Positions 33,236 to 34,423 of a stretch of 64,000 bases of DNA are shown here, piece by piece. The notes below the pieces were generated by a model that worked only from the letters and a program-made list of their open reading frames with translations, was not told where the DNA came from and made no database searches. The stretch covers positions 512,001-576,000 of the forward strand of contig OZ242296.1 of the NCBI GenBank assembly GCA_965207735.1, read 5' to 3'. This DNA comes from Candidatus Versatilivorator sp. (GTDB lineage Bacteria; Acidobacteriota; Terriglobia; Versatilivoradales; Versatilivoraceae). The position numbers and the translations under genes were made by a program. Positions within the stretch are counted from its first letter, which is position 1; each line of letters opens with the position of its first letter.

Positions 33236-34423
33236 ATGGCGAAGGAGAAATTTGATCGAAGCAAGCCGCACGTCAACATCGGGACGATCGGGCATATCGA
33301 TCACGGGAAGACGACGTTGACGGCAGCGATCACGCGGGTATTGGGGAAGAGGGATCCGAAGGTGGCGTTTCGGAGTTTCGATTCGATCGACAACGCGCCG
33401 GAGGAGCGGGAGCGGGGGATCACGATCGCGACGGCGCACGTGGAGTATTCGACGGAGAACCGGCACTATGCGCACGTGGACTGTCCGGGACATGCGGACT
33501 ACATCAAGAACATGATCACGGGAGCGGCGCAGATGGATGGAGCGATCCTGGTGGTGGCGGCGACGGACGGGCCGATGCCTCAGACGCGGGAGCACATATT
33601 ATTGGCGAGGCAGGTGGGGGTACCGAGCATCGTGGTGGCGATGAACAAGGTGGATGCGGTGGAGGATGAGGAGTTATTGGATTTGGTGGAGTTGGAAGTA
33701 AGGGAGTTGCTGGAGAGCTACAAGTTTCCTGGGGATGAAGTACCGGTGGTACGGGTATCGGCGTTGGGAGGCTTGAATGGGGAAGAGAAGTGGGAGGGGA
33801 AGATCGAGGAGTTGATGGGAGAGGTGGACGCGTACATACCGTTACCGGAGCGGGAGGTGGACAAGCCGTTTTTGATGCCGGTGGAGGACATTTTTTCAAT
33901 ATCGGGGCGAGGGACGGTAGTCACGGGGAGAGTGGAGCGAGGGAAGGTGAAGGTGGGGGAGGAGATGGAGATCGTGGGGATGAGGCCGACGCAGAAGCGA
34001 GTGGTAACGGGAGTAGAGATGTTCAAGAAGCTGTTGGATGAAGGGGTGGCGGGAGACAATGTGGGGTTGTTGTTGAGGGGAGTGGAGAAGCGGGATGTGG
34101 AGCGAGGGCAGGTGGTGGCGAAGGTGGGGAGTATCACGCCGCACACGAAGTTCAAGGCGGAGGCCTACATCCTGACGAAGGAAGAGGGCGGGAGGCACAC
34201 GCCGTTTTTCACGGGGTATCGGCCGCAGTTTTATTTTCGGACGACGGATGTGACGGGAGTGGCGAGTCTGGGAGAAGGGACGGAGATGGTGATGCCGGGA
34301 GACAATGTGAGTATGGAGATCGAGTTGATCACGCCGATAGCGATGGAGAAGGGGCTGAGGTTTGCGATCCGAGAGGGCGGGCGAACGGTCGGGGCCGGCA
34401 CCATTACCGAAATCCTGGAGTAA
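33236..34423 (+). CDS. tuf: Elongation factor Tu
   Basis: [49 protein letters not shown]. Confidence 0.99.

Follow-up and report, generated by a model that had tools for sequence, protein, structure and literature searches.

What could strip one gene of pyrimidines at its silent positions, on the sense strand, and leave the genes on either side as they were? The question is raised by tuf, which encodes elongation factor Tu (EF-Tu), in a stretch of 64,000 nucleotides from Candidatus Versatilivorator sp. (Acidobacteriota; contig OZ242296.1, positions 512,001 to 576,000), referred to as the window and numbered from its first letter. An original prediction, made from the letters alone, had described tuf as purged of cytosine by a gene-restricted and strand-directional process. 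The skew of tuf is a real, native and widespread feature, and its link to the presence of two matching tuf copies is strong. The features on which the argument turns are the following.

33236..34423, plus strand: tuf (EF-Tu, 395 aa), the str-operon copy between fusA and rpsJ, with the Pfam domains GTP_EFTU, D2 and D3 above cut-off.
33266..34360, plus strand: purine/G-saturated tract, about codons 11-375, with a skew at fourfold-degenerate sites (fourfold skew) of 0.72-1.00 per bin in the family.
34361..34423, plus strand: 3' end of tuf, with the bias fading over codons 376-385 and reversed over codons 386-395.
33231..34452, plus strand: tract of near-identity with the second tuf copy, with 3 differences, at 33919 (A/G), 34015 (A/G) and 34249 (T/C).
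34124..34126, plus strand: tuf Val297 (GTG), a Pro in 23/24 one-copy genomes.
34271..34273, plus strand: tuf Gly346 (GGA), a variable site, Pro in 10/24 one-copy genomes.
31094..33199, plus strand: fusA, unskewed control, fourfold skew −0.08.
34475..34801, plus strand: rpsJ, unskewed control, fourfold skew 0.13 (n=54).

The fourfold third positions of tuf comprise 148 G, 27 A, 11 C and 2 T, compared with 1743 G, 541 A, 1958 C and 659 T in the neighboring translation genes, which gives a purine odds ratio of 15 (Fisher p 2e-41). As frequencies, these are G 0.78, A 0.15, C 0.06 and T 0.01 in tuf, while genome-wide values are G 0.38, A 0.09, C 0.42 and T 0.10 (3358 genes from our own open reading frame (ORF) caller). 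The predicted loss of C rested on hand counts that proved exact (2 C in 33661-33720, 4 C in 34021-34080 and 15 C in fusA 32341-32400) and holds at fourfold sites, but T is depleted there along with C, and twofold pyrimidine sites retain C (34 C : 34 T). The tuf counts, set against those of the neighbors and the genome, indicate that both pyrimidines have been removed wherever a purine is allowed. The ORF runs to 34423 rather than to 34390, where it had first been ended. Over the 5.26 Mb of the genome the two tuf copies form the two most skewed 600-nt windows (+0.564 and −0.573; standard deviation 0.086), and they rank 2 and 3 in fourfold skew among the 3147 called ORFs that have 60 or more such sites. 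The first rank belongs to a low-complexity ORF (C1:1968628-1969308) that is probably a shadow frame of a short repeat. Fourfold skew is +0.86 in tuf, −0.047 in leading-strand genes, −0.106 in lagging-strand genes, and between −0.43 and +0.28 in fusA, tsf, rpoB/C and the ribosomal protein genes, as a gene-restricted, strand-directional process had led one to expect. Within 33266-34360, the twofold pyrimidine sites keep C before A (19:3) and lose it before C or T (5:17), a context effect that in part reflects genome-wide avoidance of TpA but is stronger than it.

The second tuf is located at C1:1384671-1385858, on the minus strand of the host genome (G000, a single 5.26 Mb contig), with a tRNA Thr-Tyr-Gly-Thr cluster upstream and rpmG-tRNA Trp-secE-nusG downstream. 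The copies thus occupy two separate contexts, both ancient (fusA-tuf-rpsJ and tRNA-tuf-secE). The position of dnaA and the skew put both copies on the leading strand, and they are 99.7% identical, all three differences being synonymous transitions. Identity extends from 5 nt before the start codon to 29 nt past the stop codon. Whether the biased tract matches the tract of identity had been proposed as a check; the former lies within the latter, but the bias ends 10-20 codons short of the stop codon. Within-genome tuf identity is 99.5-100% in each of nine congeneric genomes and fourfold sites differ between genomes; the copies are likely kept near-identical by repeated gene conversion. Ten congeners carry the same trait (purine 0.89-0.96), EF-Tu of the host groups with its genus (support 0.999) and family (0.993), the closest named matches are Acidobacteriota, including Terriglobia, and a contig from run X1, which may be the source sample, spans fusA-tuf with 0 differences. 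A xenolog or a chimeric assembly is ruled out by the congeners, the EF-Tu tree and the bridging contig.

Dependence on copy state was assessed in 96 Acidobacteriota genomes, chosen by hand with few-contig assemblies favored, using d, the fourfold skew of tuf minus that of neighboring genes. Ten genomes with fewer than 100 neighbor sites (tuf skews −0.24 to 0.71) were dropped, leaving 86. Two-copy genomes show d>0.2 in 55 of 61 cases and d>0 in 59 of 61, whereas d<0 is found in 23 of the 25 genomes with one match, including all 12 with one or two contigs. A comparison of one-copy with two-copy relatives had been proposed for this purpose, and the skew follows the two-copy state; at the family level the contrast gives p 1.7e-4, a value that is overstated because kin are not independent. 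The one-match exceptions are G076, whose tuf is at a contig end, and G049, where the str operon was not located. Two further one-match drafts, G148 and G580, also have tuf at contig ends, and G148, one of the dropped genomes, holds a second, partial tuf copy. Matching of the copies appears to matter as well as their number: all five genomes of family f24, whose two tuf copies are just 68-76% identical, show no skew. These f24 paralogues (L197/L198, L238-L247) also differ in length, an escape from concerted evolution.

Single-copy tuf is shifted toward C, and where a copy has been lost the skew has disappeared. The str tuf has been deleted in g180, fusA joining rpsJ directly in G284; tuf skew is 0.01 in G284 and G349 vs 0.74 in their sister G424, and the G284/G349 branches carry 40 to-pyrimidine vs 5 to-purine singletons. 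The same direction is seen on the EF-Tu tree for G362 vs G344, f22 vs G182, and the f28/f47/f17/f71 clade vs f61, deep nodes of the tree being weak. Outside the Acidobacteriota, in genomes taken from the top-listed matches for which contig counts and inter-copy identity are not known, d>0.25 is observed in 10/14 two-copy vs 2/8 one-match Alphaproteobacteria and in 8/13 vs 2/8 genomes of the Desulfobacterota-group (the phylum of Desulfobacteraceae); tuf skew is also present in Rokubacteria (0.89) and Fretibacterium (0.58). In two genomes the fourfold GC of tuf is about twice that of its neighbors, all via G (G152, L169/L212, 0.88 vs 0.41; G112, L239/L243, 0.37 vs 0.18).

These comparisons bear on ordinary causes, namely translational codon selection, leading-strand skew, foreign origin and misassembly, several of which the original prediction had itself named as ways in which it could fail. 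Such causes could draw on the fact that tuf is highly expressed and on the leading-strand position of both copies by dnaA. They are refuted, however, by the unskewed highly expressed genes (−0.43 to +0.28) and by the C-shifted single-copy tuf; the genome's leading and lagging fourfold skews are just −0.05 and −0.11, and the grouping of EF-Tu with its genus (0.999), the ten congeners that share the trait and the X1 contig that bridges fusA-tuf speak against a foreign or chimeric tuf. We give ordinary causes almost no credence.

The substitution spectrum shows which changes have been affected. As log-odds shifts of two-copy relative to one-copy families, G/C moves by +1.65, with 31/31 families exceeding the one-copy median, followed by the other transversions (G/T +1.50, A/C +1.42, A/T +1.26), while transitions shift little (about 0.15 at fourfold sites; G/A 0.6 and T/C 0.5 at twofold sites). 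The A/C shift at Arg first positions is opposite (−1.0) and was set aside because it is confounded by conditioning on the third base. On a rate tree of nine genomes of the genus (155 tuf and 438 neighbor sites), C>G is raised 13-fold in tuf (bootstrap 1.6-23) and T>G 6-fold (1.0-40), and G>C is lowered to 0.12x (0.01-0.49) and G>T to 0.24x (0.05-1.4); the intervals of the remaining rates include 1 (G>A x0.9, A>G x1.2). Differences between the copies show a matching deficit, since, in the genomes whose skew exceeds 0.75, the G/pyrimidine type accounts for just 1 of the 14 fourfold differences vs 6.7 expected (p 0.002).

The bias also has an end. Skew is flat over codons 11-375 and gone over the last 20 codons, and codons 381-391 alone hold 6/13 of tuf's pyrimidine-ending fourfold codons, in keeping with the return of C-ending codons that had been noted in the last ten or so codons. 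Across 42 genomes, the last ten codons hold 22 synonymous differences between the copies, the preceding ten 9, each ten at mid-gene 7.3 and the first ten 6, a 3-fold enrichment in the last ten. Since both the loss of skew and the differences are found at the 3' end, homogenization and bias fail at the same end.

With confidence slightly above even, we attribute the tuf skew to a polar, mismatch-filtered conversion drive. Biased conversion with a second copy had been one of the candidates put forward, and it is well supported by the existence of that copy and by a skew that follows the state of two matching copies. From the observed composition, near-identical copies, copy-state dependence, rate spectrum and end asymmetry, and from the presence of MutS and MutL, we infer conversion in this organism, the geometry of its heteroduplex and the role of MutS as the filter. 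Conversion would proceed with a fixed strand geometry in which sense-strand changes to G succeed and changes away from G are blocked. The recipient would retain its sense strand and take an antisense strand copied from the other copy, with synthesis primed in the 3' end of the gene and extended to the 5' boundary, a geometry that would leave the 3' anchor untouched and reach the 5' boundary. A sense C or T that is to become G would then give a C:C or T:C mismatch, poorly read by MutS, and the event would survive; the reverse change would give G:G or G:A, which MutS would catch and abort, and transition differences would give G:T or A:C either way and be filtered more evenly. Over long times silent sites would saturate with G, and A would probably follow by ordinary G>A transitions. 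The drive would be non-adaptive and may be outweighed where translational selection is strong, as in E. coli. Its polarity could come from lagging-strand gap repair or from transcription.

Components and precedents for such a filter are available. MutS is present in 75/75 genomes, so its presence does not separate skewed from unskewed two-copy genomes; MutL is present in G000, where NucS was looked for and not found. Conversion of tuf in Salmonella is reduced 200-1000-fold by MutS; an escape that depends on the mismatch is proposed by the authors, and nt 1126 (codon 376) converts at 1% of the mid-gene value vs 17% predicted (PMC5485169). Correction in E. coli is most efficient for G/G and least efficient for C/C (PMC1693898).

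The drive is also predicted to reach the protein, with some weakly constrained residues following the silent sites. Replacement of conserved prolines had been predicted, and this applies to Pro297>Val: site 297 is P in 23/24 one-copy but 42/68 two-copy genomes, and non-P in 11 two-copy families. The LPEG site (346), given as a second case, is not a conserved Pro (P in 10/24 one-copy and 53/68 two-copy genomes), and since it varies in one-copy genomes too it provides no evidence of drive. The total Pro count of EF-Tu does not differ between one-copy and two-copy genomes (21.3 vs 20.5, p 0.11). Glu and Arg are up and Lys, Leu and Ser down in two-copy families (uncorrected for 20 tests).

Several observations weigh against the polar drive. 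The Acidobacteriota genomes were hand-picked and include kin that are not independent, and the one-match drafts G049, G748 and G435 are skewed without explanation. Conversely, near-identical pairs with little or no skew are found in G186, G101, G124, G171, G278, G350 and Pseudovibrio, and one E. coli tuf is barely skewed (0.18 vs 0.13). No depletion of inter-copy G/pyrimidine differences is seen in moderately (25 vs 24.6) or weakly (36 vs 34.6) skewed genomes. Six genomes with the tuf copies in mixed orientation span skews of 0.23-0.86, and four of them stay at 0.53-0.86. Data from E. coli give A/G and T/C mismatches the same rank (PMC5485169, PMC1693898), so the preference for G over T is not predicted directly. 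The pyrimidine-to-purine rate in tuf is 8.8x that of neighbors (confidence interval 6-12), which exceeds the 2x limit that holds when neutral mutations are merely converted between two copies, and a conversion-only model fits worst (delta lnL 25, vs 14 for a population drive and 11 for mutation only), each of the three being rejected. This excess and the model rejections call for a contribution from additional mutation, recombination between strains or transient polymorphism.

One form of extra mutation would be recombination-associated mutagenesis, in which repair synthesis between the copies puts C opposite sense pyrimidines or abasic sites and so creates new C>G and T>G changes. The 8.8x rate beyond the conversion cap is what it would produce, only C>G and T>G are detectably raised (the intervals for C>A and T>A being wide), and in the closest genome pairs tuf transversions are as many as or above those of neighbors (G005-G009 0.042 vs 0.010). 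Transversion distances between pairs approach saturation and fail to tell drive from mutation. Added mutation cannot, however, lower G>C to 0.12x (0.01-0.49), the mutation-only model is rejected by 11 lnL, and inter-copy C/G differences are rare rather than common in the most skewed genomes. As the cause of the skew we regard such mutagenesis as unlikely.

Orientation with respect to replication bears on the source of the polarity. Among single-contig genomes, 27/33 have both tuf copies leading and 6/33 have one lagging, as judged by dnaA. In genus g89 (L293, L290, L291) the str/S10 operon is about 160 kb from dnaA and points at it (lagging) in three genomes; a three-taxon test of non-stationarity in g89 gives p 0.55, with no significant decay. 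Skew places the origin at dnaA in G097, where 6/6 windows to one side are negative and those to the other side are mixed, but does not place it in G133, and distance from the origin correlates with tuf skew at rho 0.34 (p 0.08). The ribosomal-protein clusters (window 30080-45437; C1:1372504-1385858) lie 82-86% of the way from dnaA to the antipode, near the terminus, in most congeners, and one rRNA operon was found.

A family of 17 giant fn3/cadherin proteins in the genome (FN3 family; e.g., C1 290041-299649, 2144380-2158917 and 4015527-4018631) provides a second case. Fourfold skew is +0.30 in the shared tracts and 0.00 outside them, the N-termini being variable and unskewed. The C-terminal tract (G 0.60, C 0.23) is mosaic: in the 11 members analyzed, four-gamete incompatibility climbs with distance, from 0.16 to 0.60. 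Purine load is equal in leading and lagging members (0.535 vs 0.537), but exchange has mixed the members of the family, which therefore does not decide the polarity, and the tract skew may also derive from an inherited foreign composition. A nine-member family that is less homogenized (10-11% of windows at least 97% identical, vs 56%) lacks skew even though it too has a degree of mosaic signal, and most young two-member duplicates also lack it. As a further gene evolving in concert, pmoA/amoA was sought, with matches in 2/401 and 2/9 genomes, single copies only.

Persistence of skew in mixed-orientation genomes and the equal FN3 purine load would both fit a polarity that follows gene orientation and needs no MutS, in which the donor sense strand, as DNA or as tuf mRNA, pairs with the recipient template and G-containing mismatches, presumably more stable, carry the conversion. 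This predicts the observed order of G over A/T over C. It also predicts that transitions should shift like transversions, which they do not (fourfold G/A and T/C about 0.15, A>G x1.2); we consider it improbable.

The last alternative is selection that operates only with two copies, a G-rich and weakly folded strand or mRNA favoring or controlling exchange. The tuf mRNA, at −22.1 kcal per 100 nt, does fold less than its codon shuffles, which average −23.8 ± 0.7 (a gap of about 2.4 sd), recodes with neighbor usage fold more (−28.3 ± 1.4), suppression of G>C fits any fixation bias, and selection of this kind is invoked by the authors of a study of the Borrelia vls locus, where coding-strand GC skew is 0.52 (PMC11499132). 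An unstructured mRNA had been among the original candidates; the slight reduction in folding agrees with it but does not explain the dependence on copy number, because single-copy and diverged tuf genes meet the same expression demand and lack the trait. The companion suggestion of a G-quadruplex-prone mRNA fails: tuf has 0 canonical motifs (loops up to 7) and 3 runs of at least five G vs 10.8 expected, canonical motifs are lacking in 10/11 skewed tuf genes, and G5 runs fall below the shuffle mean in 11/11. The bias also fades where homogenization weakens, and per-site selection on hundreds of silent sites for a side-effect on recombination would presumably be very weak. Selection restricted to two-copy genomes is, in our judgment, a distinctly unlikely cause. 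Conversion-linked causes taken together, by contrast, are quite probable.

Conversion of tuf is itself known, and Acidobacteria are among the lineages with long-lasting tuf conversion (PMC6053082); the available passages of that paper make no mention of skew, composition, strand or GC content. The strand-polar bias would be a variant of biased gene conversion. The tufA/tufB system of Salmonella resembles the present one in having copies in the str and tRNA-secE clusters that are near-identical over the coding sequence only, and its conversion is filtered by MutS and weak near the 3' end, as would be the case here; its model as presented is two-directional and symmetric with no compositional outcome described, whereas the outcome here is strand-polar and end-asymmetric (PMC5485169). 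Single-strand recombineering parallels the proposed mechanism in that C/C escapes MutS, G/G is removed and the lagging strand is preferred, but it is an engineered single event with a phage recombinase and involves no drive between chromosomal paralogues (PMC1693898). The vls/vlsE locus of Borrelia shares converting repeats, a G-rich coding strand (0.52 vs 0.18 for the leading strand) and no conserved G-quadruplex (G4) arrangement; the locus, which the authors explain by selection for G4-like structures, differs in being an antigenic-variation locus with silent donors in an AT-rich host and no copy-number control (PMC11499132). Unlike a conversion locus of the pilE/vls G-quadruplex type, tuf has no canonical G4 and no excess of G-runs.

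GC-biased gene conversion, abbreviated gBGC, denotes a recombination-linked, non-adaptive and strand-symmetric fixation bias that moves A/T to G/C and can reach amino acids. Like it, the tuf bias raises fourfold GC in several AT-richer lineages (0.88 vs 0.41 in G152) and tracks proxies of recombination, namely the state of two matching copies and local homogenization. Unlike it, the tuf bias distinguishes the strands, C falling to 0.06 and G rising to 0.78 along a main axis of C>G. One-strand C to G change is GC-conservative, and gBGC therefore cannot drive it. No description of G-skew in duplicated tuf was found in the literature searched, most subscription papers and supplements being outside its scope. 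Early Thermus tuf sequencing papers reportedly noted a preference for G at third positions, which may be a prior description.

A more general statement is possible, though we hold it tentatively and somewhat doubt it: that bacteria have a second, strand-polar biased gene conversion, in which long-lived converting repeats would acquire a G-rich sense strand by mismatch repair that passes pyrimidine:C and aborts G:purine mismatches, with tuf as its reporter across phyla, an effect that reaches protein, a role in shaping the FN3 family and the capacity to explain the G-skew of Borrelia vls without G-quadruplex selection. If true, it would be a strand-asymmetric counterpart to gBGC and would offer a sequence read-out of paralogue recombination (the strand transferred, the tract anchors and the mismatches that escape repair), as well as a neutral alternative for G-rich conversion loci now ascribed to G-quadruplex selection. 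It would also mean that two-copy lineages share a convergent, non-adaptive bias in tuf, a gene used as a standard reference for optimal codons and as a marker in phylogenetics, and that tuf skew could flag draft genomes in which a second copy has been collapsed or was lost recently. The question would be directly testable in the existing Salmonella tuf assay.

Other repeated genes of G000 show skew as well. High-copy families that we take from their sequences to be transposase-like (examples at C1 667451-668773, 4362424-4363641 and 4557023-4558198) have strong fourfold skews of both signs, +0.57 in a family of 13 copies, +0.36 in a family of 45 and −0.53 in a family of 22. A further 15 near-identical ORFs (C1:4589963-4591312 and 14 more), presumably group II intron reverse transcriptases, have a fourfold skew of +0.35.
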